A stretch of DNA of 64,000 nucleotides from Escherichia coli (lineage in GTDB: Bacteria; Pseudomonadota; Gammaproteobacteria; Enterobacterales; Enterobacteriaceae), in the NCBI RefSeq assembly GCF_050920415.1, contig NZ_CP169309.1; one strand, given 5' to 3'. Below the pieces are notes generated by a model. It saw nothing but the letters and a program-made list of their open reading frames with translations. It was not told the DNA's origin and ran no database searches. Both the position numbers and the translations under genes were made by a program. Shown one piece after another: positions 26,778 to 56,640 of this stretch (positions are counted from its first letter, which is position 1; each line of letters begins with the position of its first letter).

Positions 26778-28376
26778 TTAACGTAACGGCATAACGGGCG
26801 TGATATGTCCATTATGCCGGGCGGGCGGCGGTTGGCTGCCCGCCAGCCATTTGGGAAAATCACGTAGCGGCATCGGCTGTGCGTACAAATACCCTTGCAA
26901 AATATGCACGCCATGACGGCGCAAATACTTCGCCTGTTCTTGTGTTTCCACACCCTCCGCCACCAGTTCAATATTCAGTCTTTGCCCCAGTGCGATGATG
27001 ATATCGGTCACCGTCGAGTTAACCGCGTCAGAACCTATAGCTGCGGTAAATGACTTATCAATTTTCAGCACGTCAGGACGTAATGTTTCAAGCCAGGAAA
27101 ATGAACTGTTGCCGGTGCCGAAGTCATCAATCGCCAGTTTGACGTTTTTACGATGCAGCTCGCGGGCAATCCGATAATCAACATCCAGTAAGGCATCGCG
27201 TTCGGTGATTTCGAGGATTAGTTGCTGAATCGGGTGAGCGCTAAACCAGTACTGATTGAGATCTTTTATCAGCACACCACGGCGAAAATGGCTGGGTGCG
27301 ACGTTAATGCCAATATGAAACTGACTACTCATTGGGAAAACATGCCGCTGACGGATGGTTTCTGCCATCACATAGCGGGTCAGTGGCACAATTAAATGAT
27401 GTTCTTCCGCGATAGGAATAAACACATCCGGTGAAATCCAGCCCTGACGTGGATTGTTCCAGCGCAGCAAAATCTCTACACCAATACATTGCTGGCTGCG
27501 CGCATTAAGCAAAGGCTGGCAGAACAATTCGAACTCATGTTGCGCCAGGCCCAGATTGATTTCACGGGAAAAACTCATCCGGTAAGCGGTCGCCAGCCAG
27601 GCGATATAGCTCACAAGTAAACTTAGCAGCACCGCCAGCGGTAATTGTGTTGGAAGATAGTGCCATGCCAGCGCCGTAGCCCCCGGACCATTAACGTTAA
27701 TGGTAAAAGGAAAGCGTTGCGAAGAAACATGATAGTTTTCATTGTCTTCAGGTTGCGGAAGGGAATCTACCAGCCCATTACCATAGAGCAAATGCCGATC
27801 GTCCACCGTCAGGCTGGCGCTACTGATTTGCGGCAGTTGTGGCTCAAGCAGCATTGCCGCCAGTAAGTCGATGTTGATCATCTCCATGACCCCAGCATTG
27901 CTGCTGCCCGCTGCAGGCGTCCATTGAATCAAAACCGGACTGCCTTTAATCAGGGCATGGTCGGTCGTCAGTCGTAAAAGTGGTTGCGGTGCAGGAAGTT
28001 CAGCCAGAATGTCCACGACGGGCACATTGCGATAACCAAAAATGCTGGAGCAATAAAGTGTGCCGTCTTGCACCAGGCCAATGGATCGCACAGTTTGGAG
28101 TTTTGCCGCCTGTTTACGTAATGGCAAATGGGCGACAGAGCAGGGCAGACCAATTAGCGGAAGTAAGACTTCGCTACCTGCCTGTAGGGGAAGCAGTACT
28201 TTATCTAATTCCTCTACAGCGTGATTGGCGAATTGTACTACCCGTTGTTGATTTAAGTTACGCTGTGAAATAAATCGCACGCTCAGGGTCGAAGCGAGCG
28301 TAACGAGTGCGCAAATCGTACAAACAATCATTCGATTACGGCGATAGGTTTTAATGATCCGTTGTGCTTTTTGCAT
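26778..28376 (-). CDS. pdeD: c-di-GMP phosphodiesterase PdeD (CSS-domain EAL protein)
   Basis: ORF 26778..28406; EAL-domain signature IGVEILLRW visible; 532 aa from MQKAQRII...; start uncertain. Confidence 0.85.
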   Translation of the reverse strand: MQKAQRIIKTYRRNRMIVCTICALVTLASTLSVRFISQRNLNQQRVVQFANHAVEELDKVLLPLQAGSEVLLPLIGLPCSVAHLPLRKQAAKLQTVRSIGLVQDGTLYCSSIFGYRNVPVVDILAELPAPQPLLRLTTDHALIKGSPVLIQWTPAAGSSNAGVMEMINIDLLAAMLLEPQLPQISSASLTVDDRHLLYGNGLVDSLPQPEDNENYHVSSQRFPFTINVNGPGATALAWHYLPTQLPLAVLLSLLVSYIAWLATAYRMSFSREINLGLAQHEFELFCQPLLNARSQQCIGVEILLRWNNPRQGWISPDVFIPIAEEHHLIVPLTRYVMAETIRQRHVFPMSSQFHIGINVAPSHFRRGVLIKDLNQYWFSAHPIQQLILEITERDALLDVDYRIARELHRKNVKLAIDDFGTGNSSFSWLETLRPDVLKIDKSFTAAIGSDAVNSTVTDIIIALGQRLNIELVAEGVETQEQAKYLRRHGVHILQGYLYAQPMPLRDFPKWLAGSQPPPARHNGHITPVMPLR

Positions 28377-28472
28377 GCGGGCCACCCTGTAAGCGTATGG
28401 CGACAAACGCCTGAAGCAACAGTGGAAGTGTAGTGGGGAAAATTACAGCAGACGAGAAAGCAGGGATAAATT

Positions 28473-28495
28473 CGCCCATCCGTTGCAGATGGGCG
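28473..28495 (-). terminator. candidate terminator hairpin after sdaA
   Basis: stem CGCCCATC / GATGGGCG; weak T-tract. Confidence 0.4.
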
Positions 28496-28506
28496 AGGAT
28501 AAAGTA

Positions 28507-29871
28507 TTAGTCACACTGGACTTTAATTGCCAGACCACCACGAGACGTTTCGCGGTACTTGGCGTTCATGTCTTTACCGGTTTCGTACATCGTTTCGATG
28601 ACTTTATCCAGCGAGACGCGCGGCGCACTGGTGCGACGCAGGGCCATCCGCGCGGCGTTAATCGCCTTGACTGACGCAATGGCGTTACGTTCAATGCACG
28701 GCACCTGAACTTGCCCTGCAACAGGGTCACAGGTCAGACCGAGGTTGTGCTCCATGCCAATTTCCGCTGCCACACAAACCTGTTCCGGGCTACCGCCCAA
28801 CAGCTCGGCAAGGCCCGCAGCAGCCATTGAACAGGCAACACCCACTTCGCCCTGGCAACCGACTTCCGCACCGGAAATAGAGGCGTTCATTTTATACAGT
28901 GCACCAATCGCGCCCGCAGCCATAAAGTAACGGGTATAGATGTCCGGGCTAACCGATTCAATAAAGTGGTCATAATAAGCCAGCACTGCCGGAACAATGC
29001 CACAAGCACCGTTGGTTGGCGCAGTTACCACACGACCACCGGCGGCGTTTTCTTCGTTAACTGCCAGCGCAAACATGTTTACCCAGTCAATGACATTCAT
29101 CGGATCGTTAGACAGTTTATCGCTGGAAACCAGCATCCGGCGCAGGGCCGACGCACGACGCGGCACGCGCAGCGGGCCTGGCAGTACGCCTTCGGTGTTC
29201 ATCCCGCGATCGATACATGCCTGCATGGTTTGCCAGACATGCGCGAAATACTCGTCGATCTCTTTCTTGCTGTGCAGCGCCAGTTCGTTCTGCATAGCGA
29301 GACCAGACAGCGAATAGCCGGTTTCATTACAGTACGCGAGCAGTTCGGTGGCAGATTTGAACGGATACGGCACGCTCACTTCGTTGGCTGCATCCTGACC
29401 AAAGTGTTCTTCATCGACGATAAAACCGCCGCCGATGGAATAATAAGTTTTGCTGTAGACGACTTCATCGCCGTTATAGGCGTGGATTTGCATACCGTTT
29501 TCATGCAGCGGCAGGTTGCCGTTATGAAAACGCATCCCGTTGTCGCGCGGGAAATCCACTTCATGCCGTCCCTGTGCCAGCAGCAGACGTTCGCGCTCTT
29601 CTACGTCGCGAATAAAACCGGGAATACTGTCGATATCCACGGTGGCAGGTTCGTTACCTGCAAGACCCATAATAATGGCGATATCGGTGTGGTGGCCTTT
29701 ACCCGTCAGCGACAGTGAACCATAAACGTCCACGGCAACGCGAGTAACGCTATCCAGTAAGCCTTTTTCGACCAGATCATCGACGAACTGTTTACCCGCC
29801 TTCATAGGCCCTACGGTATGGGAAGATGAGGGACCAATCCCCACCTTAAACATGTCGAATAGACTAATCAC
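28507..29871 (-). CDS. sdaA: L-serine deaminase I
   Basis: ORF 454 aa; Fe-S L-serine dehydratase. Confidence 0.95.
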
Positions 29872-30054
29872 GATAATACTCCTGACAAGGTGACTGGACT
29901 TCCAGTAACGAACGAATAACAGCGCATAGTGTAAGAGGGAACGCGGCGACTGGCTTAACTATTCACATGAATTAAACTAATCAAAAACCGCGATTTAACT
30001 AATATTGCGATGATTGTCTCAAGTAGTGTTTTGTAGATGTAAAGATAAGTATAG

Positions 30055-30633
30055 TCAGGGTTTCACACCAATTTGCAGCGCCAGCTCACGAATTATGCCT
30101 GCGGTCATTCCCCATACAAAATACTGTTCATACCAGGACAGCCATACCCGATGTGAATCGCCACGGCGGTAGATATCTAAAGGGTGATAACGACCCAGAT
30201 GTAATGCCTGGGCGAGCGGCATTTCAAACACAGCGGAGACTTCATCTTCACTGGCGCGATACGGCAGATCGGGCGGGATAATGCCGACCACTGGCGTTAC
30301 CTGGTAGCCAGTGACGCTATCGACGGGCGGCAGCACGCCGATAACTTCGACGGCGGAAGGTGGTATAGCAACCTCTTCTTCAGCTTCGCGCAGCGCAGCG
30401 GCGATAACTGACGCGTCCGTATCATCCACTGCGCCGCCTGGAAACGCCACTTGTCCGGCGTGTTTACGCAGATGAATCGAACGCTGAGTCAGCAACAACC
30501 CCGGTTGCGGTCGACGGACGATGGGGATTAACACGGCAGCCTGACGATGATTTAGGGTTTCCCGGTTAATTTGCGGGCGCAAAAGTTGAAAACGCGATAA
30601 AAAATCATCAAGCGTCAGGCTACGGTATTCCAC
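30055..30633 (-). CDS. nudL: Nudix hydrolase NudL (CoA pyrophosphatase-like)
   Basis: ORF 192 aa; Nudix box [22 protein letters not shown]; 3 nt after pabB stop. Confidence 0.9.
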
Positions 30634-30636
30634 GTC

Positions 30637-31998
30637 TTACTTCTCCAGTTGGCGTAATATCTTATTAACTTTATCAAAAGTTTCCTGATATTCCGCTTCT
30701 TCCTGGCTATCGGCGACAATTCCACCGCCCGCAGAGCAGTATATTTGTCCGTTAATGGCAGTCAGCGTGCGGATAGTAATGCTGGTATCCATGTTGCCGC
30801 AAAAGCTCAAATAGCCAATGCTGCCGCACCAGGCATTGCGTCGCTGCGGTTCCAGTTCGTCGATAATTTCCATAGCCCGTACTTTCGGTGCTCCAGTTAT
30901 TGAGCCACCAGGAAAAGCTGCGCGCAGCAGATCGCTGGTGTGTAACTGTTCTGGTAGTTGCGCCGTTATGGTGCTGACCAGATGATGCACGGCAGGGAAG
31001 GGTTCCACCACGAACAGCTCTGGTACTTTTACCGAACCTGCTACGGCAACACGACCGATATCATTACGCATTAAATCGACAATCATCAGATTTTCGGCAC
31101 GATCTTTCGCTGAGTTCGCCAGTTTTTCTGCTTGTTTGCTATCTTCCTGAGGATCGGGCAGGCGTGGTAGCGTGCCTTTAATCGGGCGGGTCTGGATTTC
31201 ACTATTATCACAAAGAATAAACCGCTCTGGCGAAAGGCTTAAAATCGCGCCCTGTTCAAGACGTAAAAAAGCGCTAAATGGCGCGCGGTTGGCCTGATTA
31301 AGCTGAAGGAATGCCTGCCATTCATCGCCAGAATAGGTCGCATGGAAACGCTGGGCGAGATTCACCTGATAGCAATCACCGCTGTGCAGATATTCCTGTA
31401 CCTGGCGAAATTTTTCGCCGTACAGCTCGCGGGTCATATTGGATTGCCAGTCGGAAGTGAGCGTGAAATCTTCCTGCGGCGAGAATTGCTGGCTTTCCAG
31501 CCAGGCCCGACGGGCATTGACATCATTATGACTCAGCAAAGAAACTGTTTGACGCTGGTGGTCGACAATGAGCGCCCAGTCGTAGATACCCACAGCCATA
31601 TCCGGCAGAACGATATCTTGCTGCGCAATTTCTGGCAGTGACTCAAAACGGCGGCCCAGATCGTAGCCAAACAACCCCAGCGCGCCGCCCTGAAATGGCA
31701 AATCTTCGTTATGCGCTGGGCGAATGTCTGCGCGATCCAGCACCTGCTGGAGCACCTGTAGCGGGTCATCAGTGGTCGTTGTGCATTTTTCGCTTTCACT
31801 AACAACGGTTTCTTTACCGAAAGTGGTTAAAGTGCAAATCGGCTCGGCGACCACAATATCAAAGCGGCTATATGGATGATCGGCATAGCCGGAGTGTAAA
31901 AGCATCGCCCACGGCAGGTGACTTAAGCGGGAGAAATAAAATTCAGCGGCGTCCTGACGCCAGGGTAAAGTAATCACAGCGGGAGATAACGTCTTCAT
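30637..31998 (-). CDS. pabB: aminodeoxychorismate synthase component I
   Basis: ORF 453 aa. Confidence 0.95.
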   Translation of the reverse strand: MKTLSPAVITLPWRQDAAEFYFSRLSHLPWAMLLHSGYADHPYSRFDIVVAEPICTLTTFGKETVVSESEKCTTTTDDPLQVLQQVLDRADIRPAHNEDLPFQGGALGLFGYDLGRRFESLPEIAQQDIVLPDMAVGIYDWALIVDHQRQTVSLLSHNDVNARRAWLESQQFSPQEDFTLTSDWQSNMTRELYGEKFRQVQEYLHSGDCYQVNLAQRFHATYSGDEWQAFLQLNQANRAPFSAFLRLEQGAILSLSPERFILCDNSEIQTRPIKGTLPRLPDPQEDSKQAEKLANSAKDRAENLMIVDLMRNDIGRVAVAGSVKVPELFVVEPFPAVHHLVSTITAQLPEQLHTSDLLRAAFPGGSITGAPKVRAMEIIDELEPQRRNAWCGSIGYLSFCGNMDTSITIRTLTAINGQIYCSAGGGIVADSQEEAEYQETFDKVNKILRQLEK

Positions 31999-32071
31999 CA
32001 GTCCTGACTCTACTGGCTATGTGCCGGGTAGCATGAAATAATTAGCGCCAACAATTTAGCAGGAGTTAACA

Positions 32072-32251
32072 ATGTTTGCAGGTTTACCTTCACTCACCCA
32101 TGAACAGCAGCAAAAAGCCGTCGAGCGGATCCAGGAACTGATGGCACAAGGGATGAGCAGCGGCCAGGCAATCGCGTTGGTGGCAGAAGAGCTGCGTGCC
32201 AACCATTCCGGCGAGCGAATCGTGGCGCGTTTTGAGGATGAAGACGAGTAA
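32072..32251 (+). CDS. yoaH: UPF0181 small protein YoaH
   Basis: 59-codon [62 protein letters not shown] read by eye; AGGAG RBS; not in ORF track. Confidence 0.8.
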
Positions 32252-32309
32252 CACACTAATCCGTATCGCTTTCGTTATAGAAGCCGATGGTTATTTGATT
32301 GTGAGAAAA

Positions 32310-32342
32310 AGGACGCTTTTCATATGTGATTAAAAGCGTCCT
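32310..32342. terminator. bidirectional terminator hairpin (yoaH / yoaC)
   Basis: stem AGGACGCTTTT / AAAAGCGTCCT with 11-nt loop, A/T tracts on both sides. Confidence 0.65.
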
Positions 32343-32370
32343 GACCCATTTATGCTGATGTAAATTTAAC

Positions 32371-32670
32371 TTAGACCAGTGCTTTTAGTTCTTCCTGCAT
32401 ATATGTTGAAAAGTATTCAGGATTTTTAATCACAATGCGTTCACCAGACTCCATTTTTTTTGCCCATCCAACCATTTTTTCCGTGAACCCCGGGTTCCAG
32501 CCTTCCTGGTCAGCTCGCGCCGTAATATCAGCGGCACTCGCGGGTACTCCCAGTTCTTTCAAATATTTAAAGATTCCCTTCGCCGTGCTTTCATTCATCG
32601 AACTTGGTGTTGGCGCTGATACATCCATGGCACCAATGAAATCCAGGGCTTTATCTATTACAGCAGGCAT
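32371..32670 (-). CDS. yoaC: DUF1889 protein YoaC
   Basis: ORF 32371..32730; start at MPAVIDKALDF... gives 99 aa; start uncertain. Confidence 0.75.
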   Translation of the reverse strand: MPAVIDKALDFIGAMDVSAPTPSSMNESTAKGIFKYLKELGVPASAADITARADQEGWNPGFTEKMVGWAKKMESGERIVIKNPEYFSTYMQEELKALV

Positions 32671-33091
32671 ATTCTTATCCTTAAAATTAACCATGTTATC
32701 GATAAGGCTATATATGACCTTAATTTGCATCTAATATCAAAGGGATTATAACGATATGGCACGAGTTAACCTGTTGACATTCAGGTGTTTTAAAGGTAGC
32801 AGCTCATGGTGTGTTATCCAGTAAGAGGGAGAAAATTAACGGTCAGTTCTCACGCTATAACCAGATTGTTCAGCTAAGAAAGAAAACCAGAGATGCTAAT
32901 CGAAGGGCGAACACAACGGCATTGTTATGTTTATTTATATAGTTAGTTTTATAGCTAAAATTGAAATTATAAAAATAAATAATGAATTAGCAGGAGCATC
33001 AACAGTAATATCTTAATCTCTGGTCGATTTATGTAAAACCGACCAGTATTATCGATAAATTATCGTCTGACTTATTTTGCTTCGATAAAGC

Positions 33092-33436
33092 TTACACCGC
33101 AGCCACAATCTTAATTTCAACTTTATACTTCGGGTTCATCAAACCCGCTTGTACCGTGCAGCGCACCGGCGCATGACCCGCGACAACCCAGGCATCCCAC
33201 GCTTTATTCATCGCCGCGAAGTCGTTTTTATCAGCCAGGAAAATGGTGGCATCCAGAATGCTCGATTTATTGCTGCCCTGTTTTTCCAGCACGGCGTCAA
33301 TCTGCGCCAGCGTGTTGGCGGTTTGCTCAAAGGCATTGGCGTCAAGGTTTTCCGGCACACCCGTATAGTAGAGAGTGTTGTTGTGGATCACGACATCAGA
33401 CCAGCGGGCTTCGGCGTCGATACGAACGATAGTCAT
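33092..33436 (-). CDS. yoaB: RidA/YjgF-family protein YoaB
   Basis: ORF 33092..33484; start at MTIVRIDAEARW... gives 114 aa; GAGGA RBS. Confidence 0.85.
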   Translation of the reverse strand: MTIVRIDAEARWSDVVIHNNTLYYTGVPENLDANAFEQTANTLAQIDAVLEKQGSNKSSILDATIFLADKNDFAAMNKAWDAWVVAGHAPVRCTVQAGLMNPKYKVEIKIVAAV

Positions 33437-33567
33437 CATTTTGTCCTCATTATACTTCCATTTTCGTGCTGCAAAGACTGCCACAATGTGAGGTCGCCGT
33501 CACCACTTCAACTGGCGAAAGCGCCCTCATCCTGACATAATCCCTGTTCAAATCAACAGGGGGTAGT

Positions 33568-36269: not shown

Positions 36270-36851
36270 ATGGCGGTTCAAAAGAATGTTATCAAAGGCA
36301 TACTGGCAGGTACGTTTGCGCTAATGCTGAGCGGTTGTGTTACTGTGCCGGATGCCATTAAAGGCAGCAGTCCCACGCCGCAACAAGATTTAGTTCGGGT
36401 GATGAGTGCGCCGCAGCTGTACGTTGGTCAGGAGGCACGCTTTGGCGGCAAAGTGGTTGCGGTACAAAACCAGCAAGGGAAAACCCGCCTGGAAATTGCT
36501 ACCGTACCGCTCGACAGCGGAGCCAGACCAACTTTGGGAGAACCTTCTCGCGGTCGCATTTATGCCGATGTGAACGGTTTTCTGGATCCGGTAGATTTTC
36601 GTGGACAATTGGTCACGGTAGTTGGACCAATCACCGGTGCGGTTGACGGCAAAATCGGCAACACGCCCTATAAATTTATGGTGATGCAGGTAACGGGTTA
36701 CAAACGTTGGCATTTAACCCAGCAGGTGATTATGCCGCCTCAGCCGATTGATCCATGGTTTTATGGCGGTCGTGGCTGGCCCTATGGCTACGGTGGATGG
36801 GGCTGGTATAATCCCGGCCCCGCGAGAGTACAAACTGTTGTAACTGAATAA
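36270..36851 (+). CDS. yeaY: Slp-family outer membrane lipoprotein YeaY
   Basis: ORF 193 aa with lipobox LSGC. Confidence 0.85.
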
Positions 36852-37055: not shown

Positions 37056-38741
37056 TTGAAGAAGGTTTGGCTTAACCGTTATCCCGCGGACGTTCCGACG
37101 GAGATCAACCCTGACCGTTATCAATCTCTGGTAGATATGTTTGAGCAGTCGGTCGCGCGCTACGCCGATCAACCCGCGTTTGTGAATATGGGGGAGGTGA
37201 TGACCTTCCGCAAACTGGAAGAACGCAGTCGCGCGTTTGCCGCTTATTTGCAACAAGGGTTGGGACTGAAGAAAGGCGATCGCGTTGCGTTGATGATGCC
37301 TAATTTATTGCAATATCCGGTGGCGCTGTTTGGCATTTTGCGTGCCGGGATGATTGTCGTAAACGTTAACCCGTTGTATACCCCGCGTGAACTTGAGCAT
37401 CAGCTTAACGATAGCGGCGCATCGGCGATTGTTATCGTGTCTAACTTTGCCCACACTCTGGAAAAAGTGGTTGATAAAACCGCCGTTCAGCACGTAATTC
37501 TGACCCGTATGGGCGATCAGCTATCTACGGCAAAAGGCACGGTAGTCAATTTCGTTGTTAAATACATCAAGCGTCTGGTGCCGAAATACCATCTGCCAGA
37601 TGCCATCTCATTTCGTAGCGCCCTGCACAACGGCTACCGGATGCAGTACGTCAAACCCGAACTGGTGCCGGAAGATTTAGCTTTCCTGCAATACACCGGC
37701 GGTACCACTGGTGTGGCGAAAGGCGCGATGCTGACTCACCGCAATATGCTGGCGAACCTGGAACAGGTTAACGCGACTTATGGGCCGCTGTTGCATCCGG
37801 GCAAAGAGCTGGTGGTGACGGCGCTGCCGCTGTATCACATTTTTGCACTGACCATTAACTGCCTGCTGTTTATTGAACTGGGTGGGCAGAACTTGCTTAT
37901 CACTAACCCGCGCGATATTCCGGGGTTGGTAAAAGAGTTAGCGAAATATCCGTTTACCGCGATAACCGGCGTTAACACCTTGTTCAATGCGTTGCTGAAC
38001 AATAAAGAGTTCCAGCAGCTGGATTTCTCCAGTCTGCATCTTTCTGCAGGCGGTGGTATGCCTGTTCAACAAGTGGTGGCTGAACGTTGGGTGAAACTGA
38101 CCGGACAGTATCTGCTGGAAGGTTATGGCCTGACCGAGTGTGCGCCGCTGGTCAGCGTTAACCCGTATGATATTGATTATCATAGTGGTAGCATCGGTTT
38201 GCCGGTGCCGTCGACGGAAGCCAAACTGGTGGATGATGATGATAACGAAGTACCACCGGGTCAACCGGGTGAGCTTTGTGTCAAAGGACCGCAGGTGATG
38301 CTGGGCTACTGGCAGCGTCCGGATGCCACTGATGAAATCATCAAAAACGGTTGGCTACACACTGGCGACATTGCCGTAATGGACGAAGAAGGTTTCTTAC
38401 GCATCGTTGATCGCAAAAAAGACATGATTCTGGTTTCCGGTTTTAACGTCTATCCCAACGAGATTGAAGATGTCGTCATGCAGCATCCTGGCGTACAGGA
38501 AGTCGCGGCTGTTGGCGTACCTTCCGGCTCAAGTGGTGAAGCGGTGAAAATCTTCGTTGTGAAAAAAGATCCATCGCTTACCGAAGAGTCACTGGTGACT
38601 TTTTGCCGCCGTCAGCTCACGGGCTACAAAGTACCGAAGCTGGTGGAGTTTCGTGATGAGTTACCGAAATCTAACGTCGGAAAAATTTTGCGACGAGAAT
38701 TACGTGACGAAGCGCGCGGCAAAGTGGACAATAAAGCCTGA
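37056..38741 (+). CDS. fadD: long-chain fatty acid-CoA ligase
   Basis: ORF 36990..38741; known TTG start at 37056 giving (M)[15 protein letters not shown]..., 561 aa; AMP-binding motif [16 protein letters not shown]. Confidence 0.95.
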
Positions 38742-38760
38742 GCGTTAAGTCAGTCGTCAG

Positions 38761-38787
38761 ACGCCGGTTAATCCGGCGTTTTTTTTG
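38761..38787 (+). terminator. intrinsic terminator of fadD
   Basis: stem ACGCCGG / CCGGCGT, loop TTAAT, followed by TTTTTTTT. Confidence 0.85.
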
Positions 38788-42168: not shown

Positions 42169-43779
42169 TCAGTTGTCGCCTTTGAATACGGTTCCAGCAG
42201 GAAGCACTGGCGCTTTTCCCGGGGCTTCAACCGGTGTCTGCGGGAGATAATGTTCAACTTGATGAGCTGGAATGTCGGCGTAATCCTGTTTCAGCCAGCG
42301 AATAAATCCGCCGACTTTCACCAGTAAAATGGCGAGGAAGGGAAGGGCAGTGAGGACGACGGTAGTTTTCATTGTTTCCAGCGAAGCACCGGTAAACAAG
42401 ATGGAAAGCGGGATCAGAGTGATCACTACGCACCAGAACAGACGCAGCCCACGGTCAGGATCGTCACCTTCCTGGAGATTACGCGTGCTGGTCGCCGCCA
42501 TGGTGTAAGCCACCGCATCCATATGCGAGGCGAGGAAGATAATCATCACGCCCAGGTATGCGGCGAGGAACAATTTACCGGCTGGCAACGACATCAGAAC
42601 TTGCTGCACAGCTGTTTCGCCGCCCAGTGTTTCCAGCACCTGTGGGACGTTGATTACGCCATTGATAAACTGATGAATGGCATAGCTTTCCATTACACCG
42701 AAGAAGAACCAGCAACCGACAGTGCTGCCGAGGATCAGTCCCCAGATAACTTCTTTAATCTTTCGACCGCGCGAAACGCGGGTGACAAACATTGCTACGC
42801 CAGGGGTGTATGAGATCCACCACAGCCAGTAGAAAACGGTCCAGTTGCGGGTAAATGAACCATCGCCAAGCGGATCGGTGAATAAGCTCATTTGCAGGAA
42901 GTTTTGCGTGGTCAGGCCGATGGCATTGATGATGCTGTTGGTAATAAATTCGGTTGGACCGACAATCAGCACCAGTAATGGCAGCAGGAATGCGCCCCAG
43001 CCAACCATTTTGCTTAGACGTTGCAAACCGTTGTTGATACCAATCCACGAGCTTAGGCAAAAAATGCCGCCGGAAAGCAGGATCACAAATGCCTGTACGG
43101 TAAAGTTATCGGGTAAACCGGTCAGCGCGGAAAGCCCACGGGTAAAGGTTGCTGCGGTGACAACAAGGGAAATGGTCAGTGCGCCGACAGTGGCGATCAG
43201 GAACATCAAATCGACCAGTTTCCCCCACGGGCCTTGCGGGCGAACGCCGGTAATAGCAGCAATAATGCCGGAAAGGCTCAGCCCTTTATTTTTCCGCACA
43301 TGAAAGTGATAAGCCATGATTAATGAGGCCAGCGTATAAGTTGCCCAGGCGCTGATGCCCCAGTGGAAGAAGGAGTAGGGAACGCTAAATTCGAGTGCCT
43401 GTTGTGAACGCGGTGCGATATTTAATCCAGGCGTTTGATAATAATAGGCCCATTCAGCAACCCCCCAATAAAGCGTAGAAGAACCTAAACCTGCACAAAT
43501 AAACATAAACAGCCAGGAGAGCGTGCTGTATTCCGGTTTTCCTTCGCCAAGACGAATATTGCCGTATTTACTGGTGGCTAAATAAATCACCAGTCCCATT
43601 GCCAGCAAAACCAATACCTGTACGGCGGAACCTAACGTACGCGTGACAAAAGTGTATATAGCGTTTGCCGCGTCGGCCGATTGTTGTGGGAAAAGGCTTA
43701 ATGCAGCTGCGATGAAAAGAATGGCCACCAGGCTGATGCTTATCAACGGCACATCTTTTTTCTTAACATTGCTCATCAT
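42169..43779 (-). CDS. yeaV: BCCT-family transporter
   Basis: ORF 536 aa with AGGAG RBS 7 nt upstream of ATG at 43779; K-12 annotation as recalled is shorter, so start uncertain. Confidence 0.85.
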
Positions 43780-43982
43780 GAGTCATCTCCTGGGCATAAA
43801 AGCCCGCCTCTGGCTTTTGCCAGTTGTAATTATTTGCAGGGTATGAGTTGTATGTTGTGTTTAACAAATTGATTATTTACATGTTACATAAATTAAACAA
43901 TTAAGAATACGGAAAGCCATAAAACACGAAACGGAAACAATAAAAGGTGAAATGACGCAGGTTATTTACTGCAAAGAACGAA

Positions 43983-47770: not shown

Positions 47771-48019
47771 ATGGGCATTCTGTCATGGATTATTTTTGGG
47801 CTTATTGCCGGTATTCTGGCGAAGTGGATCATGCCAGGTAAAGATGGTGGTGGATTCTTTATGACTATCCTGCTGGGAATAGTCGGTGCCGTAGTCGGCG
47901 GATGGATCAGCACGCTGTTTGGCTTTGGTAAAGTCGATGGCTTCAATTTTGGCAGCTTCGTGGTTGCCGTTATTGGTGCGATTGTCGTGCTGTTTATCTA
48001 CAGAAAGATCAAAAGTTAA
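47771..48019 (+). CDS. yeaQ: GlsB/YeaQ/YmgE-family small membrane protein
   Basis: ORF 82 aa, Gly-rich TM helices. Confidence 0.85.
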   Translation: MGILSWIIFGLIAGILAKWIMPGKDGGGFFMTILLGIVGAVVGGWISTLFGFGKVDGFNFGSFVVAVIGAIVVLFIYRKIKS

Positions 48020-48032: not shown

Positions 48033-48067
48033 CAAAGGCTGCACACAGGCAGCCTTTGCTATTTTTT
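48033..48067 (+). terminator. intrinsic terminator of yeaQ
   Basis: stem CAAAGGCTGC / GCAGCCTTTG followed by CTATTTTTT. Confidence 0.8.
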
Positions 48068-48077: not shown

Positions 48078-48152
48078 TTACCACCATCCCAACTCAGTGC
48101 CGAGAACGACAATAATCGCTACGCCCATCATAATAATCGTTGTTTTTTTCAT
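48078..48152 (-). CDS. yoaJ: small membrane protein YoaJ
   Basis: 24-codon ORF MKKTTIIMMGVAIIVVLGTELGWW read by eye on minus strand; not in ORF track. Confidence 0.7.
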   Translation of the reverse strand: MKKTTIIMMGVAIIVVLGTELGWW

Positions 48153-48154
48153 CT

Positions 48155-48253
48155 TTATGCTCCCGGGGCAGCATAGCCGCCAATAAAAAACCATGCTAAA
48201 AATACGACCGCTGTAATAAAGATTACAACCGGAAAAATAATACCGATTCGCAT
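48155..48253 (-). CDS. yoaK: small membrane protein YoaK
   Basis: 32-codon ORF MRIGIIFPVVIFITAVVFLAWFFIGGYAAPGA read by eye; stop 2 nt before the yoaJ ATG. Confidence 0.7.
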   Translation of the reverse strand: MRIGIIFPVVIFITAVVFLAWFFIGGYAAPGA

Positions 48254-48285: not shown

Positions 48286-49311
48286 TCAGGAATGTAGCAC
48301 TGAATGCGCGACAAAAGGTGTTTTCTGTTTGTGTTTTTTCTCCTGATACATCGCGATATCGGCAGCATGCAGGGCGCTGTCTGCATCGGTCGTTTCAGGA
48401 TCGACTTCTACTATGCCAAGACTGGCACCAGGATAATACAAATCAACATCACCTAAGTGATATTCTCCGCGTATTTGCTGTTGAATACGTTCTCGCAGCG
48501 ATGGAATATCCGCATTCTCATTGTTCAGTGAAACAACCAAAAACTCATCACCGCCGAGACGACCAATAACTTCGCCATTTTGCTGGAGCGTATTAAGGCG
48601 CTCGCCAACCTGAATAAGAAACAGATCGCCACTATTATGACCAAAACGATCATTGATTAATTTGAAGTTATCCAGATCGATAAATGCGATCATTATCTTA
48701 TGGTTAAGATGCCGGGCGAGGGAAAACAGCGTCGTCAGATTTTCAAAAATCGCCCGCCGATTTGGTAACCCGGTTAACGAGTCGGTATACGATTGCGCAA
48801 TCAGCGCGGCATTGGCTTCGCGCAGCTGTTCTACCAGCGCCTCTTTTTGAATATATTGTGCAATCAGTCCGGCGAATAACTGCAAAACCTGTTCCGCGCG
48901 TTCACTCCACTGGCGCTTCTCACTGCTGGCGGCGCAAAGCGTGCCATAGAATGATCCATCCGGTAAGTGAATTGGCGTGCTCAGAAATGTGGTGATGCCA
49001 AGATTGCGTGCCGCAATACAGTCGCCCCAACGGTCGGGGACTTCATCGCTGAAAAAGCAGTTTTCATCAATGGCGCGTTTGCATAACGAGTAATCCCACG
49101 AGACGGTAAAATTCTCCGGGATGTGCATTTTCTGGCTGTTACGGGCAAACATTATATGCTGCAGGCGCGCTTCGACATCCACTTTGGTCAGGTAGGTTGA
49201 TTCCATATCAGTGACCATTTCCAGCATCTCCAGAAGCTGTCGGACCAGACTTTCCAGTGACTGTTCTTTGGCAAGGGATTGCGAGACGCGGGCGATAATC
49301 TGATCTGACAC
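48286..49311 (-). CDS. dgcP: diguanylate cyclase DgcP
   Basis: ORF 48286..49440; GTG start giving (M)SDQIIARVSQ..., 341 aa; GAF-like N-domain and GGDEF motif RLGGDEFLVV. Confidence 0.9.
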   Translation of the reverse strand: MSDQIIARVSQSLAKEQSLESLVRQLLEMLEMVTDMESTYLTKVDVEARLQHIMFARNSQKMHIPENFTVSWDYSLCKRAIDENCFFSDEVPDRWGDCIAARNLGITTFLSTPIHLPDGSFYGTLCAASSEKRQWSERAEQVLQLFAGLIAQYIQKEALVEQLREANAALIAQSYTDSLTGLPNRRAIFENLTTLFSLARHLNHKIMIAFIDLDNFKLINDRFGHNSGDLFLIQVGERLNTLQQNGEVIGRLGGDEFLVVSLNNENADIPSLRERIQQQIRGEYHLGDVDLYYPGASLGIVEVDPETTDADSALHAADIAMYQEKKHKQKTPFVAHSVLHS

Positions 49312-49493
49312 GAAACAACTCCAGGATACGGCGGGTAAATGCTGATTATTTAATCTTTGCAGGCATGATAAAACATCATCAACAAAGATGAAACAAGGCG
49401 TAATATGATTTGAGTGAATGTAATAAAAATAGTGCTGCAAAACAAAACGATACCGCGATACTCTAAGCCTGGATAAATATGTGAGATCAATAA

Positions 49494-49748: not shown

Positions 49749-49769
49749 CCGCCGGATGCTGCACTAAAA

Positions 49770-50117: not shown

Positions 50118-50171
50118 CGTATTTGTTCTCCCTTTCACGCATGATTTGTCACGTCACTATAGCACCGGATA

Positions 50172-51353
50172 TTAGCGAATTTCTTTGTCTCTCCCGGCGC
50201 AAAGTCCGAAAATCGCCATCAGTAGTGAAAGTATTGCAACACCCATCAGTGGTACGGACCAGTCACCGTTAGCATCGTGTATTTTACCCATCAGTGGCGG
50301 CCCACAGGCTGCCAGCAAATACCCGACGGATTGTGCCATCCCCGAGAGTGCCGCCGCCTGATGCGCAGAACTTGCCCGCAGACCAATGAACGTCAACCCC
50401 AGTATCATTGTTGCGCCGGAACCAAAACCGAAAAGCAGAGTCCAGGTGATCGCGTGTGCTGGCATAAAGCAGAGCCCAACCGCGCCCACTGCGCACATCA
50501 AGGCAACGAACGCTGCAATACCACGCTGATCTTTCACATGATGTAAGAAAAGTGGGATCAGCAAGCCGGGAGCTGCTGTGGCTAGTTGCAGCAAACCATG
50601 CAGTGAACCCGCCTGTGCTTCGCTATAGCCGTGACTGATGAGGATCGCCGGAAGCCAGCCAATAATCACGTAATAGACCAGTGAGTTGATCCCAAGAAAC
50701 AATGTCACCTGCCAGGCAAGCGGCGAACGCCAGATACCCCGAGTATGTAAGGCGCGTGAGGTACTCAAATTTGCATGTTGTTGACTTCGCCACTGTGGCA
50801 GCCATAAAAAAAGAGCCAGCAGAGGAAAACACATCAGCATGAGCAACGCGCCTTGCCAGCCAAAACCGTTCAAAGCCAGCGGCACTACCATAGCCGATCC
50901 CAGTGCCGCCGCAGCTCCCATTGTCAGGGAATATGCGCCGGTAAGTCTGGCGACGGAATGAGGGAAATCGCGTTTAATTAATCCTGGCAGTAAGACATTG
51001 CCTAATGCAATCCCACCGCCAATGACCGCTGTACCGCCAAATAATAAGTAAGGCGAAGGGAGAGAGCGAATTGCAATACCAGCACAGATCAAAAGTAACG
51101 CGGCAAACAGGCTACGTTCCATACCAAAACGTCGCGCCACCGGGGCGGCCAGCGGTGAGATTAGCGCAAAGGCTAATAATGGCAGGGTGGTCAATAAGCC
51201 GGTTTGCGCCGTCGTTAGCGAGTAAGCGGAACGAATCGTATCCAGTAACGGTGCTGCGCCGGTAAAGGTGACGCGTAATGTTGTGGCAATCATCAGAATG
51301 CCAGCGATAAGGACAATCCTGTTTTTACCGCTTAATGAAGTTGAACAGGTCAT
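50172..51353 (-). CDS. nimT: MFS exporter NimT
   Basis: ORF 393 aa, 12-TM MFS. Confidence 0.9.
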   Translation of the reverse strand: MTCSTSLSGKNRIVLIAGILMIATTLRVTFTGAAPLLDTIRSAYSLTTAQTGLLTTLPLLAFALISPLAAPVARRFGMERSLFAALLLICAGIAIRSLPSPYLLFGGTAVIGGGIALGNVLLPGLIKRDFPHSVARLTGAYSLTMGAAAALGSAMVVPLALNGFGWQGALLMLMCFPLLALFLWLPQWRSQQHANLSTSRALHTRGIWRSPLAWQVTLFLGINSLVYYVIIGWLPAILISHGYSEAQAGSLHGLLQLATAAPGLLIPLFLHHVKDQRGIAAFVALMCAVGAVGLCFMPAHAITWTLLFGFGSGATMILGLTFIGLRASSAHQAAALSGMAQSVGYLLAACGPPLMGKIHDANGDWSVPLMGVAILSLLMAIFGLCAGRDKEIR

Positions 51354-51449
51354 ATGCTTCTCATTGTCACAAACGAGGCTGTACCTTACCGTTTTTATTG
51401 TTATGTTGAATCAAGCTAAAATGACAAAATATCGCTAAATTCTGACAAA

Positions 51450-52271
51450 ATGATGCACAGGTTGAATCTCAATGGCTATGAACCCGACCGACACCATGAA
51501 GCCGCGGTCGCATTTTGTATTCACGCCGGAACGGATGAGTTAACCAGTCCTGTACATCAGCACCGCAAAGGGCAGCTGATACTGGCGCTACATGGTGCAA
51601 TTACCTGTACGGTGGAAAATGCGTTGTGGATGGTGCCGCCGCAATATGCGGTTTGGATACCGGGAGGGGTGGAACATAGCAATCAAGTGACAGCTAACGC
51701 TGAACTCTGTTTTTTGTTTATAGAGCCCAGCGCAGTGACAATGCCGACAACATGTTGCACATTGAAAATATCGCCCTTATGCCGGGAATTAATTTTAACC
51801 CTGGCAAACAGGACGACGACTCAGCGTGCTGAGCCGATGACCCGCAGATTAATTCAGGTCCTGTTTGATGAACTCCCTCAGCAGCCACAACAACAGCTGC
51901 ACCTGCCCGTTTCTTCTCATCCTAAAATCCGCACGATGGTGGAGATGATGGCGAAAGAGCCCGTTGAGTGGGGCTCATTGGGGCAATGGGCTGGCTTTTT
52001 TGCGATGAGTGAACGCAATCTTGCCCGGCTGATAGTGAAAGAGACGGGGTTGAGTTTTCGCCAGTGGCGTCAGCAGTTACAGCTGATTATGGCGCTTCAG
52101 GGATTAGTGAAAGGCGATACTGTACAGAAAGTTGCTCATACGCTGGGGTATGATTCAACAACGGCCTTTATTACTATGTTTAAGAAAGGCCTGGGGCAAA
52201 CGCCAGGCCGATATATTGCGGGATTAACTACTGTTTCCCCACAATCAGCGAAACCAGACCCGCGGCAATAA
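51450..52271 (+). CDS. nimR: AraC-family regulator NimR
   Basis: ORF 273 aa; cupin-like N-domain and AraC HTH C-domain. Confidence 0.9.
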
Positions 52272-52674
52272 GCGGGCCAACCGGTACGCCGCGAAACAGC
52301 GCCACGCCCAAAACAGTGCCCACCAGCAGCCCGGCGACCAGTTGCGGCTGGCTGCCCATTAACGTCACGCCGCGCCCACCTAGCCAGGAGACAATAACGC
52401 CTACTGCAATTGCCACCAGCGATTTCCAGTTCAGAAACGAGTGAATCAGGGTTGAGGGCGGTAGCGTCCCGCTGGCGATGGGGGCCATAACGCCAATCGT
52501 CAGAATGATTATCCCGATACTTAGCCCCTGTTTTTCAATCCACGGGAAAAAGGTGCTTAACGGTGTGACGCGGACAATGATTAACACCAGAATTGAAACG
52601 GCCACAGTGGTGTTATGACTGATAAAGCCCAGCGCAGCTAACCCGAGCAGGATCAGCAAAGTGACATCAAACAT
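52228..52674 (-). CDS. yeaL: UPF0756 membrane protein YeaL
   Basis: ORF 148 aa; 3' end overlaps nimR 3' end by 44 nt. Confidence 0.85.
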
Positions 52675-52842
52675 CGTGGTTTCCTTGCCAAAAAATAATA
52701 AGCCTGCTTACTTTACGCTTGCTGCAGGAAGGAAGTAGAAAATCTTTACGTTTTTTGCATAAAAAATCAGGCGAACTGTCATCAAACTGCCATTTGTACA
52801 CGCTATCAATAACGTGAAAACAGTTATCTCCCGGGGCATACC

Positions 52843-52947
52843 ATGAACGATCAAATGTTCGTTGAGACACTGATTATCACGTCATCGTTTTTTGTTATTG
52901 CTGTTGTGCTGGTTTTGTCCGTTCTGCTTATTGAACGGACAGGCTAG
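52843..52947 (+). CDS. yoaI: small membrane protein YoaI
   Basis: 34-codon [37 protein letters not shown] read by eye; not in ORF track. Confidence 0.7.
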
Positions 52948-53451
52948 TTACGCAGTGCGGCGGAAATTGACCAGTTCTGGTTGCGCAATGCGCAAATAAT
53001 CCGCAGTTTTCAAAATAACGGATTTATTCAGCATGCCTGCATTAAAGGCGATTTCATCGAATCGCTCGAAGAGCAATGGGTCGGCGACCAGTTTGAGTTT
53101 TGGATGGAAGCTGAAAGGGGGGATCGCGCCGAAGACACAGCCTGTGAGTTCATCGACTTCCGCCGGGCTGGCCAACGAAGCGCGTAATCCGCCTATATGG
53201 CTGGCGAGTTGGCTCAGATCGGCCTGTTGATCGGCCGCGAGGATCGCCAGAACATGTTGATTTACACCATTGCCTTTGACTTTACATACCAGTGCCTTAG
53301 CCCCCTGGCCTAAAGCGGTGCCACGAATTTCTGACACCGCTTCACATTTACCTACCGCTTCATGGGTAACGACGCGGAAGTCAGCACCTTCTTGTGATAA
53401 TAAAGCGATTAACCGCTGATGCGTCACGCTTCCTTTAGCCATTTCAGTCAT
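52948..53451 (-). CDS. yeaK: YbaK/ProX-family aminoacyl-tRNA deacylase
   Basis: ORF 167 aa. Confidence 0.9.
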   Translation of the reverse strand: MTEMAKGSVTHQRLIALLSQEGADFRVVTHEAVGKCEAVSEIRGTALGQGAKALVCKVKGNGVNQHVLAILAADQQADLSQLASHIGGLRASLASPAEVDELTGCVFGAIPPFSFHPKLKLVADPLLFERFDEIAFNAGMLNKSVILKTADYLRIAQPELVNFRRTA

Positions 53452-53493
53452 TTCATGCTCCTGAGATTACAAGCAAACAACCACAGAAGGTTA

Positions 53494-54984
53494 TCATGAA
53501 CGGCTGTTTTTGTTCTGCTTATTGACATATAAACGCTCATCGGAAGCTTTATATGCATCATGTAACGTATCGTTTTCTTTCATCGCGTAAATACCGGAAG
53601 AGAAGCCGATCTCTTTCTGAGGCGCGATATGTTGCAGACGTTTTTCGATACGTTCAGGCAGTTGTGCTGCAATTTGCGGCGTCGAATCGACAAGAATGAT
53701 GCAGAATTCATCGCCACCGAGTCGGATGGCATAATCACTTTTACGAATCGACTGTTTAATCGCCTGAGCTAATAACGTAATCGCTAAATCCCCCTCCTGA
53801 TGACCGAGGGTGTCATTTATTTGCTTTAACTTGTCCATGTCAATTGCAATAAACATCACCGAAGAACCGGATTGCACCAGTTTCTGCAACCGCTGCTCCA
53901 GTTCAGGGGTTAAAATTTTGCGATTATACAGTCCAGTCATCGCATCACTAATATTTTCTCGCGACACGTTTTGGTATAAACGGAAGTGCATCCGGACCAT
54001 ATTCAGCAAAATTAACGCCGTCAAAATCCAGAACAGAACGCTTTTCCACGAAGACGTGATAAAGTAAAGAATATCAATGGATAACGAGACACGAATACCG
54101 CCCGGTAAGTCATGGACGTAACTGACATACTGGAACAGATTATCTTCGCTCTGGTTGATGATAATGTCGCGCCCTGAATCTGTATCAGTTAGCGTGACAT
54201 TGAGAAAACGCCAGAGGAGAGGGCGGTCATGAGTGTAAAAGATATTCCGCAGATTGTTTTTGTTAATATCCAGCAGCACAATCCCTTTTAGCTGCCCTGC
54301 GACATATACCGGCGTCAGCAAACTCATCACGTTCTGTTTAGTACGCTGATCCTGGTAAATGCTCGATAATACGGTACGCCCGGTAAATACCTTTTCAATA
54401 TCTTTGCGATCGATGCCAATACTTCCTGACTGCAGGAAGGACCAGTTATTCATCGCAAAGTACTCAACATTAACCGGCTCATAAAAATAGACATAGCGGT
54501 CATTGAGATCGAGATAATAGTGAAATTTCTCTTCGGCCATTCCAAGACCTGAACCGTAATCATCCTGGTGGCGGTTGCCTTCCACTGCCTGATCAAAAGC
54601 GGGTAATAGTGCTGCAGCTTCCACAATTGTGTCGCAGTCAGTGGATGCGGTTTGTAGTGTGCCGCGTAAGCCCGGGTATTTATGGGCAGTCAGGTTTAAG
54701 CCATGGGTATTATTGGCAGACTCAAAAGCCTCGCAGATGGCGCGCCGCTGTTCTGGCGACACTTCCGACTGCTCAGCAGCGAGAGCGCGCATCACATGCG
54801 CGGCAATACTCTGATTCTGATACTTATCATAAAGAAAGGAGGAATCTGCTCTCTGCACGATATAGCGCAGATAGGCACTCATTGCTCTGTCGCTGGCGAC
54901 AAGTTCAAAAATAAGGAAGGAAGATGTCAGCACAATGACACTTGCGGCGATAAAATGCCGGAGCATTCTATGGTGCAATTTCAT
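53494..54984 (-). CDS. dgcJ: membrane-anchored diguanylate cyclase DgcJ
   Basis: ORF 53494..55164; start at MKLHHRMLRHF... gives 496 aa; canonical GGDEF (RLGGDEFCII). Confidence 0.9.
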   Translation of the reverse strand: MKLHHRMLRHFIAASVIVLTSSFLIFELVASDRAMSAYLRYIVQRADSSFLYDKYQNQSIAAHVMRALAAEQSEVSPEQRRAICEAFESANNTHGLNLTAHKYPGLRGTLQTASTDCDTIVEAAALLPAFDQAVEGNRHQDDYGSGLGMAEEKFHYYLDLNDRYVYFYEPVNVEYFAMNNWSFLQSGSIGIDRKDIEKVFTGRTVLSSIYQDQRTKQNVMSLLTPVYVAGQLKGIVLLDINKNNLRNIFYTHDRPLLWRFLNVTLTDTDSGRDIIINQSEDNLFQYVSYVHDLPGGIRVSLSIDILYFITSSWKSVLFWILTALILLNMVRMHFRLYQNVSRENISDAMTGLYNRKILTPELEQRLQKLVQSGSSVMFIAIDMDKLKQINDTLGHQEGDLAITLLAQAIKQSIRKSDYAIRLGGDEFCIILVDSTPQIAAQLPERIEKRLQHIAPQKEIGFSSGIYAMKENDTLHDAYKASDERLYVNKQNKNSRS

Positions 54985-55164
54985 GATAAATGGCACTCCT
55001 TCGGTTAGTGAAACGAGAAAACCAGATAAAGTTCGATTGCGGCCTGGCACAGGGGCGCTAATTATACTCATCTCTGCGCCGCTGGGGAGGGGAAATTTAG
55101 GGGTAATAGTAATAAATTGTATGCAAAAGCCACGCAAAAAGCATGGCTCTGAATATTTTTGCAC

Positions 55165-56640
55165 TTAAATATGATGAATAATCACTTTGTTGCCCCCCTC
55201 GCTTTTCGCTTCGCGTAAGGCTTTATCTGCTTCCGTCATGACAAGCGAGATATTACGCGTGTCACCCGTTGAAAAAACCGTGCCAATACTGATGGTCATT
55301 TGTTCAGGAACATCATATCTGTTACTAAAACCGGTCAGGAGTTCGACATTTTTACGCATACGTTCCGCAATGATTTTTGCCTGGGCACTATTGAGTTCGG
55401 TAAATAGCAAGCCAAACACCTCACCCTCCAGTCGCGCTAAAATATCATCGGGGCGGATGCTTTGCTGGATAATATCGACAATTGAAACCAGCACTTTATC
55501 ACCCACACGATGTCCCCATTGGGCATTGATGCGCTTGAACTGATTAATATCAACCAGCATGACACAAAAGTCCTTAACAACAGGTCGCGACAATAATGAC
55601 TCTACGCTGTTGAAAAAGTAGCGCCGATTATAAATATTGGTCAGTACATCATGAACTGCCAGTTTGCTGGAGAGTTGCAGTTCCTGAAAAATGTTATAAA
55701 TCAGAAAAGACACAACAAACAGTTTACTGGAAACTTCAATCCCGCGACTGATATACCAGATGGTGTAATTATACTCATCCAGAGTCAGTAGAAGTAAGTT
55801 GCAGCATAGCGATGCCAGACATAATAATGCTATTAACGGCCATAGTTCGCTGGCTAATCGTGTACGCATGATAATAAAGAACAGTAAAAATGCCCACAGA
55901 CAAACCAATATTTTTGTATAGTTGATTCCCCAGGTCGCAGTATGGTTGTCCGGACAGTAATCGACGACATACAAAGAATAGTCAGCGTTATAACTGCTCA
56001 GATTGTGTGCCAGAAGGGGAAAAAATAAAAAAGGAATCAGCGCCAGCAACAGAATGCCAGTTTTTTTCTTATTGTTGTCAAGGATGTTGTCTTTCCCATA
56101 ACAAAAGAGCGCCAGCGAGGTTAAACAAATGAAACTGAGTTGGCGGAAAATATAGAAAATAGAAACATCATTCGACTTTGTCTGGATCAGTGTACTGCCG
56201 TTGATTGGTTTATGGATAATTACAATGGTTTCAACTAAATAGATAAGGCCACTTAAAAATGCAAGGCTTAAAATGAGTGTTGGTAAAATTTGTTTGTTAG
56301 TGAAATACTTCATTAACATGAAAAGAAAAATGACGGCGTTAAGGAAAAACAAAGCCACAACAACCATCAGGTAATTCATCTGTGGGATGAGTTTTACATT
56401 CGTGTTTTCGTTATATAAGGTAGTAATGCAAAATAAAATTAACGTCAGCAATAAGCTGAAAATAAAAAAGCCTTGAGCTTTTAATTTTTGTGTACCCATA
56501 GAAGCCATAAAAAGGAGAGCAATGTGAGTGCTGGATTTTATTGATGGCAGAGATATATGGTTTTGACCAGGATCAATTTTCGTTGACGATAAAAAATAAT
56601 TAAAGAATAACCCCAGGGAAATACGTGTTGACCGAATCAT
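55165..56640 (-). CDS. yeaI: degenerate GGDEF-domain membrane protein YeaI (CdgI)
   Basis: ORF 491 aa; multi-TM N-terminus; GGDEF position reads EGEVF (RLEGEVFGLL); AT-rich coding sequence. Confidence 0.9.
   Translation of the reverse strand: MIRSTRISLGLFFNYFLSSTKIDPGQNHISLPSIKSSTHIALLFMASMGTQKLKAQGFFIFSLLLTLILFCITTLYNENTNVKLIPQMNYLMVVVALFFLNAVIFLFMLMKYFTNKQILPTLILSLAFLSGLIYLVETIVIIHKPINGSTLIQTKSNDVSIFYIFRQLSFICLTSLALFCYGKDNILDNNKKKTGILLLALIPFLFFPLLAHNLSSYNADYSLYVVDYCPDNHTATWGINYTKILVCLWAFLLFFIIMRTRLASELWPLIALLCLASLCCNLLLLTLDEYNYTIWYISRGIEVSSKLFVVSFLIYNIFQELQLSSKLAVHDVLTNIYNRRYFFNSVESLLSRPVVKDFCVMLVDINQFKRINAQWGHRVGDKVLVSIVDIIQQSIRPDDILARLEGEVFGLLFTELNSAQAKIIAERMRKNVELLTGFSNRYDVPEQMTISIGTVFSTGDTRNISLVMTEADKALREAKSEGGNKVIIHHI

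Follow-up and report, generated by a model that had tools for sequence, protein, structure and literature searches.

Why should four genes of signalling by c-di-GMP (cyclic dimeric guanosine monophosphate) lie within about 30 kb of Escherichia coli DNA? The genes pdeD, dgcP, dgcJ and cdgI (yeaI) are found between positions 26778 and 56640 of a 64,000-nucleotide stretch of contig NZ_CP169309.1, the whole of which is referred to below as the window. The original prediction considered this density notable and proposed that it reflects locally specific signalling modules. Most probably, however, these are four independent c-di-GMP genes that belong to the E. coli core genome and have been characterised before, not one system.

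Identity and active sites of the four genes

The interval 26778-56640 is bounded exactly by the pdeD stop and the cdgI start and comprises 29,863 bp, versus 29,641 bp in K-12. All four genes are located on the minus strand, their open reading frames (ORFs) are intact and of the same length as in K-12, and they are named in the RefSeq annotation of the matching record:

pdeD (yoaD), 26778..28376, minus strand: 532-aa membrane protein, CSS domain in the periplasm and EAL domain in the cytoplasm, predicted c-di-GMP phosphodiesterase
dgcP (yeaP), 48286..49311, minus strand: 341 aa, predicted cytoplasmic GAF-GGDEF diguanylate cyclase
dgcJ (yeaJ), 53494..54984, minus strand: 496 aa, periplasmic GAPES1 domain and GGDEF domain, predicted membrane diguanylate cyclase
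cdgI (yeaI), 55165..56640, minus strand: 491 aa as annotated, membrane protein, MASE4 domain and degenerate GGDEF domain

Their products differ from the K-12 proteins by 8 (PdeD), 4 (DgcP), 1 (DgcJ) and 8 (CdgI) residues, and the catalytic motifs are untouched. The core status of all four is evident from complete E. coli genomes, 5,372-5,421 of 5,426 of which (99.0-99.9%) contain each gene at a coverage of at least 80%. The K-12 MG1655 segment b1785-b1815 (1,870,385-1,900,025) has a gene set, order, orientation and lengths identical to those of the interval and differs from it at the allele level only; the length of yeaV is 1611 bp here, against 1446 bp in K-12. The window aligns with MG1655 1,860,000-1,905,000 in reverse orientation at about 97.2% identity. 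The identities, domains and coordinates originally assigned to the four genes are correct according to Pfam and the annotation. Examination of the active sites, in agreement with published tables (PMC3484386), finds them intact in PdeD, DgcP and DgcJ and degenerate in CdgI.

PdeD contains CSS-motif (Pfam, 3e-42) and EAL (2.3e-58) domains, and the peptide IGVEILLRW, by which it was first recognised, corresponds to its residues 298-306. The EAL blocks are complete (QPL, EILLR, GINV, EITE, DDFGTG, KIDK, EGVET, QGY) and include the full catalytic and metal-binding set (ExLxR, N, ExxE, DD, K, E, Q); they are those of the active K-12 phosphodiesterases, unlike the blocks of the degenerate BluF and CsrD. 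Among solved structures PA3825-EAL is the closest (5e-56), and the motifs are aligned with it. In Shigella, deletion of pdeD leads to a rise in c-di-GMP (bioRxiv 10.64898/2026.06.22.733758).

PdeD is counted among the five CSS-domain EAL phosphodiesterases of K-12 (Herbst et al. 2018, PMC5897775). Its EAL domain is nearest to that of PdeN (41%) and only 36% identical to that of PdeC. PdeD shares with PdeC the TM1-CSS loop-TM2-EAL organization and has both conserved cysteines and all catalytic motifs. The cysteines of PdeD, C79 and C109 (YCSS), are located in the loop between hydrophobic segments 15-37 and 241-265. By analogy with PdeC, a periplasmic disulfide, with control by DsbA/DsbB, and processing by DegP/DegQ may gate PdeD activity, redox and proteolytic control having been established experimentally for PdeC and PdeB but not for PdeD (PMC5897775).

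DgcP is composed of GAF (Pfam GAF_2/GAF) and GGDEF (1e-40) domains and is free of hydrophobic segments. Its A-site is intact (RLGGDEF), and the I-site position reads QNGE; the I-site RxxD five residues upstream of the A-site is common, but not obligatory, in GGDEF cyclases. DgcJ includes GAPES1 (7e-151) and GGDEF (3.4e-40) domains, scores 747 bits against the NCBIfam equivalog (cut-off 500) and possesses both the I-site (RKSD) and the A-site (RLGGDEF); hydrophobic segments 7-32 and 308-334 are located around GAPES1.

In CdgI (MASE4, 3e-48; GGDEF, 9e-45) the A-site reads EGEVF and N-A replaces N-D, while the I-site RPDD is intact. Older literature conflicts on the activity of this protein (PMC3484386), and binding of c-di-GMP by it has been reported (PMC5635695). 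The decayed active site and the preserved I-site, taken together with the reported binding, suggest that CdgI functions as a c-di-GMP-binding protein rather than as a cyclase.

Relatedness, age and regulation of the four genes

The adjacency, common orientation and similar size of cdgI and dgcJ (491 and 496 aa) could suggest that a GGDEF gene was duplicated in tandem at this site and that the copies then diverged. Such an origin is refuted by the domain architectures and the paralogy matrix and may be practically dismissed. The sensor domains are unrelated: CSS in PdeD, GAF in DgcP, GAPES1 in DgcJ and MASE4 in CdgI. Identities between the GGDEF domains are near the bottom of the K-12 range (cdgI-dgcJ 23%, cdgI-dgcP 21%, dgcJ-dgcP 26%), and the nearest relatives lie elsewhere, namely dgcT for cdgI (47%, 0.78 Mb away), dgcQ for dgcJ (32%) and pdeR for dgcP (32%).

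The four genes also differ in phylogenetic age. In a comparison set of 80 YeaH-anchored Enterobacteriaceae loci, dgcP, dgcJ and cdgI are present or absent independently of one another. The gene dgcP is widespread in the slot between yoaF and yeaQ (Escherichia, Citrobacter, Enterobacter, Kluyvera, Leclercia and others; 54-93% identity). The distribution of dgcJ is patchy: Escherichia, Citrobacter, Kluyvera, the Klebsiella oxytoca group, Pseudocitrobacter and Cedecea have it, Enterobacter and many others do not. Within this set, cdgI occurs in Escherichia only. PdeD orthologues (60-76% identical) are found in an identical context, yoaA...sdaA-pdeD-yoaE-manXYZ, in Salmonella, Enterobacter and Kosakonia, and pdeD is retained in genera that lack dgcJ and cdgI.

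A selected signalling neighbourhood, in which proximity would reflect function and the four enzymes, together with the envelope and stress genes interleaved with them, would make up local modules by co-regulation or physical coupling, is improbable. Between the four there are about 40 genes, unrelated and located on both strands. At the cdgI end, the gene is parted from yeaGH by a terminator-like hairpin, the stem of which is kept across six Escherichia species with substitutions on both arms:

yeaH-yeaK slot, 53452..56786, no strand assigned: variable chromosomal position, which holds cdgI and dgcJ here
terminator-like hairpin, 56754..56782, minus strand: right after the yeaH stop, 11-bp stem followed by a T-run

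According to the literature, sigma-factor dependence and expression differ as well: PdeD is induced by sigma-S, DgcP is vegetative, and CdgI is undetectable and repressed by CsrA (PMC5635695). Expression of dgcJ is higher at 37 C (PMC8669469). Losses are independent both in other genera and in Shigella (PMC11327459); Shigella flexneri lacks cdgI and carries dgcJ in truncated form, with dgcP and pdeD intact (PMC11327459; bioRxiv 10.64898/2026.06.22.733758).

The specific partner of DgcJ is reported to be the glycosyltransferase NfrB, which is supplied with c-di-GMP locally (Junkermeier and Hengge 2021, PMC8669469). This module shares the DgcJ protein with the window and represents locally specific signalling in the textbook sense, but its locality consists in protein-protein contact, not in gene proximity (PMC8669469). 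The criteria given there for a local module are direct contact of the cyclase or phosphodiesterase with its effector and a specific phenotype of the knockout in spite of other active enzymes; in the literature they are established for DgcJ-NfrB only. The nfrB gene is outside the window; in K-12 it occupies 590,941-593,178, at a distance of 1.28 Mb from dgcJ.

Four neighbours were named by the original prediction as interleaved with the c-di-GMP genes. Two of them, yeaY (36270-36851) and yeaQ (47771-48019), are indeed inside the interval, whereas mgrB (18037-18180) and mipA (60553-61299) fall elsewhere in the window, beyond the limits of the interval. No evidence was found that ties any of the four enzymes to mipA, yeaY, yeaQ or mgrB. 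An Rfam scan of the window returned no c-di-GMP-related RNA. A sigma-70 promoter scan was uninformative, giving fewer sites than in shuffled sequences and none upstream of pdeD.

Gene density and placement around the terminus

The density of this gene class can be estimated from K-12, for which 29 GGDEF/EAL proteins are known (Sarenko et al., PMC5635695). The coordinates of all 29 genes were taken from the MG1655 annotation. They occupy 4.64 Mb with a mean spacing of 160 kb; thus 29.6 kb is expected to contain 0.185 genes, and it contains 4, which is 21.6-fold. Under a uniform null (200,000 random placements) the probability is p=0.017 for the four genes and 0.024 for the inner three. The former value is nominally significant and favours the selected neighbourhood. 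The family-wise value over cluster sizes 2-8 is p=0.077, and with adjacent pairs collapsed to single units the uniform null gives p=0.21.

The last value would also agree with pure coincidence on a uniform chromosome, free of any regional bias or hotspot. This explanation is nonetheless unlikely, since the placement of the 29 genes is not uniform. Rayleigh's test gives p=0.0018 with a mean direction at 1.63 Mb (p=0.01 with pairs collapsed). Relative to dif, which we take to be at about 1.59 Mb, 23 of the 29 genes are within a quarter-chromosome (p=0.0012) and 16 are within an eighth, i.e. in the terminus-proximal quarter (p=0.0005). Under the uniform null three directly adjacent pairs (in K-12 pdeI-dgcI, dosP-dosC and cdgI-dgcJ) are unlikely too (p=0.0085). 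A search of the literature for a reported terminus bias of GGDEF genes retrieved nothing relevant.

With a fitted von Mises null, the local expectation doubles to 0.38, and the probability becomes p=0.066, or 0.40 with pairs collapsed. The density is therefore real but marginally unusual: nowhere else in K-12 does this gene class reach it, but its significance is nominal only and fades under reasonable nulls. The genome-wide count, which the original prediction named as its own refuting check, settles this point: the window is enriched over the genome mean, but not robustly beyond the regional, terminus-biased trend plus one adjacent pair.

Taken together, the nominal density, the lack of paralogy, the differences in age and regulation, the many intervening genes, the decay in Shigella and the remote position of nfrB argue for a known, ordinary gene set, and the interpretation of the whole cluster as locally specific signalling modules is not upheld. 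The analysis itself establishes gene identity, the state of the active sites, the absence of paralogy among the four, their unequal ages and the statistics; enzyme activities, regulation and the DgcJ-NfrB partnership are deduced or come from published work. The proximity of these independent genes probably results from three factors acting jointly, namely concentration at the terminus, a flexible region after yeaGH, and chance. The GGDEF/EAL class is concentrated around the replication terminus, and the local expectation is roughly doubled by this. The segment downstream of yeaGH is flexible, c-di-GMP genes having been repeatedly gained and lost there in Enterobacteriaceae.

The region downstream of yeaH, local units and CdgI

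GGDEF/EAL ORFs in the 80 loci are distributed asymmetrically around yeaH, with 0 upstream and 80 downstream, the latter representing at least nine architectures. The shortest yeaH-yeaL interval is 258 bp and the longest about 8 kb; together these intervals contain 54 ORF families, four of which are c-di-GMP families; GAPES1-GGDEF, MASE4-GGDEF, CZB-GGDEF and EAL genes are among them. About 0.36 would be expected from their genomic share (p=0.0005, or 0.005 without the two families of E. coli itself), the test being post hoc and ignoring phylogeny. These further families in other genera, counted as 3-4 of about 52-54 against about 0.35 expected, are again at variance with pure coincidence.

Several other architectures are encountered (loci L019, L022, L023, L024, L030, L036, L048, L053, L061, L068 and L071). 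In Enterobacter, Lelliottia and Leclercia the yeaH-yeaK slot holds a CZB-GGDEF gene on the opposite strand. Downstream of yeaH, CSS-EAL and GAF-EAL genes are present in Raoultella terrigena, an EAL-only ORF in Cedecea, dCache-GGDEF in Enterobacter mori, and in Kluyvera, Pseudocitrobacter and Pluralibacter a GGDEF gene with a periplasmic domain outside the assigned families. In some loci CSS-EAL genes are located beyond yeaQ.

It is possible, though doubtful, that the density is no accident and that the terminus-proximal segment downstream of yeaGH represents a family-wide sink preferentially retaining c-di-GMP genes, with DgcP-YoaK-YoaJ and CdgI-DgcJ as local units. In that case YoaK and YoaJ could tether or gate the soluble DgcP at the membrane, and CdgI could modulate its long-standing neighbour DgcJ.

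The first of these units includes two short RefSeq-annotated genes downstream of dgcP:

yoaK, 48155..48253, minus strand: 32-aa small membrane protein, 32 bp downstream of dgcP
yoaJ, 48078..48152, minus strand: 24-aa small membrane protein, 2 bp after yoaK
G+C-rich hairpin, 48033..48058, no strand assigned: between convergent yeaQ and yoaJ, 10-bp stem with 6 G-C pairs, consensus match only

Judging by its sequence and position, the hairpin is probably a bidirectional terminator that closes the unit. Directly 3' of dgcP, yoaK is found at 74-100% identity in 26 of the 31 dgcP-containing loci; of the 31 informative loci, 30 have yoaJ after dgcP, its C-terminus ending in a conserved GWW, and 26 have the two small genes together. 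YoaK is frequently more conserved than DgcP itself (loci L004-L058). The yeaP-yoaK-yoaJ operon is supported by RNA-seq (PMC4620388). Conservation of dgcP-yoaK-yoaJ as a unit of three genes extends over many genera of the Enterobacteriaceae, and it is the only neighbour-level unit to survive testing and the only operon-like one. Its conservation and co-transcription speak in favour of a selected neighbourhood; on the other side, among 12 loci without dgcP, 7 still have yoaJ, so that strict co-occurrence of yoaK and yoaJ with dgcP holds in part only. The literature searched offered no functional link between DgcP and YoaK or YoaJ.

The dgcP allele of the window is rare: a single one of 5,417 E. 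coli genomes matches it at 99% or more, the next best being at 97.9%, while cdgI is matched at this level in 1,138 genomes. Local import of the allele was considered and rejected; divergence from K-12 is even across the region, therefore the rarity of the allele reflects a rare lineage.

The second unit, cdgI-dgcJ, consists of adjacent, co-oriented genes 180 bp apart, and this adjacency, kept in Escherichia and in some Citrobacter-like genomes, favours the selected neighbourhood as well, as does the recurrence of c-di-GMP genes in the region across genera. Side-by-side GGDEF/EAL genes are also represented by dosC-dosP, which belong to one operon (Sarenko et al., PMC5635695), and by pdeI-dgcI. 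In those pairs, however, a cyclase is combined with a phosphodiesterase and the gaps are 7-24 bp, whereas in cdgI-dgcJ a degenerate receptor-like protein is followed by a cyclase. Unlike the members of such pairs, dgcP and pdeD lie 4 and 25 kb further off. Below the level of the cluster, modules are supported only weakly, for dgcP-yoaKJ and possibly for cdgI-dgcJ.

The degeneracy of CdgI can be followed beyond E. coli. Other Escherichia species have DGEVF or EGDVF at the A-site; all Escherichia versions are degenerate, and RPDD is invariant. Restriction of cdgI to Escherichia was at first considered and then overturned, because a protein search revealed syntenic orthologues (58-62% identical) between yeaH and dgcJ in a few Citrobacter-like genomes (P0138, P0141, P0142; L108 6001-7338; L109 6001-7338). 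These retain RSDD or RSED, GGEEF and N-D. Since the syntenic orthologues keep GGEEF, the degeneracy is derived, and by its sequence the Escherichia CdgI looks like a cyclase turned into a c-di-GMP-binding protein. The G+C content of cdgI is low in both lineages (37-39%; 39% here versus 49% for the window).

DgcT (YcdT), a cyclase encoded next to pgaABCD, is, like CdgI, a MASE4-GGDEF protein and a paralogue collinear with it over the full length (37% over 445 aa, E=2e-99). Unlike CdgI, with its EGEVF and N-A, it keeps GGEEF. The alignment starts at CdgI residue 48, a methionine that coincides with DgcT M1. The true cdgI start is probably this M48, at 56499, the annotated start being 47 codons too early. 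Compared with K-12, codons 1-47 contain 0 synonymous and 6 non-synonymous differences, and codons 48-491 contain 18 and 2, respectively. Across Escherichia species the annotated ATG is replaced and frame-breaking indels occur, while the M48 ATG is invariant; the majority of other CdgI database clusters are called at 444-448 aa. The segment 56500-56640 is conserved as DNA and therefore is probably a 5' leader.

Several points weigh against regarding the four as independent genes brought together by region and chance. The cdgI-to-pdeD segment is the tightest foursome of GGDEF/EAL genes in K-12 and, with the simplest null, reaches p about 0.02, so that a non-random cause is possible. Only 29 genes, not independent and all from one genome, underlie the terminus bias. 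In other genera, selection and not flexibility could account for the repeated presence of c-di-GMP genes downstream of yeaH. The genes cdgI and dgcJ seem to have been inherited together from a time before Escherichia and Citrobacter separated, their products being 58-60% (CdgI) and 63% (DgcJ) identical in L108 and L109. Several other GGDEF domains are reportedly bound by that of CdgI (PMC5635695), and a functional link between CdgI and DgcJ is therefore possible.

Some further features of the window concern other genes. From position 3669 to its end, it differs from strain MFDS1022581 (NZ_CP169399.1) by 6 mismatches and one indel. The sole indel falls in mipA, which is an intact 248-aa ORF in the window and is annotated as a frameshifted pseudogene in NZ_CP169399.1. 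Divergence between the two begins at about 3668, within the SraC/RyeA-SdsR/RyeB small-RNA locus (3559-3703); window positions 1-3668 carry core genes from exoX-yobB-yobA-copD-yebY to pphA, and MFDS1022581 has a prophage of about 42 kb inserted there. The yeaV gene is located at 42169-43779, and the alignment with K-12 breaks just upstream of it (about 43651-43875). Rfam models match a cspA-type thermoregulator over yobF-cspE (19192-19652) and the sroD small RNA at the fadD 3' end (38700-38785).

The gene set itself was already known; as it stands, it restates the E. coli K-12 map and changes nothing. A modest value could lie in the by-products of its analysis, namely the placement around the terminus, the dgcP-yoaK-yoaJ unit, and the start and trajectory of CdgI. 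The corrected start and the path from enzyme to receptor would be useful to those studying or expressing CdgI. The conserved dgcP-yoaK-yoaJ unit supplies two orphan small proteins with a testable partner. Terminus-centred placement of c-di-GMP genes, if true, would link the capacity for second-messenger signalling with gene dosage and growth phase.

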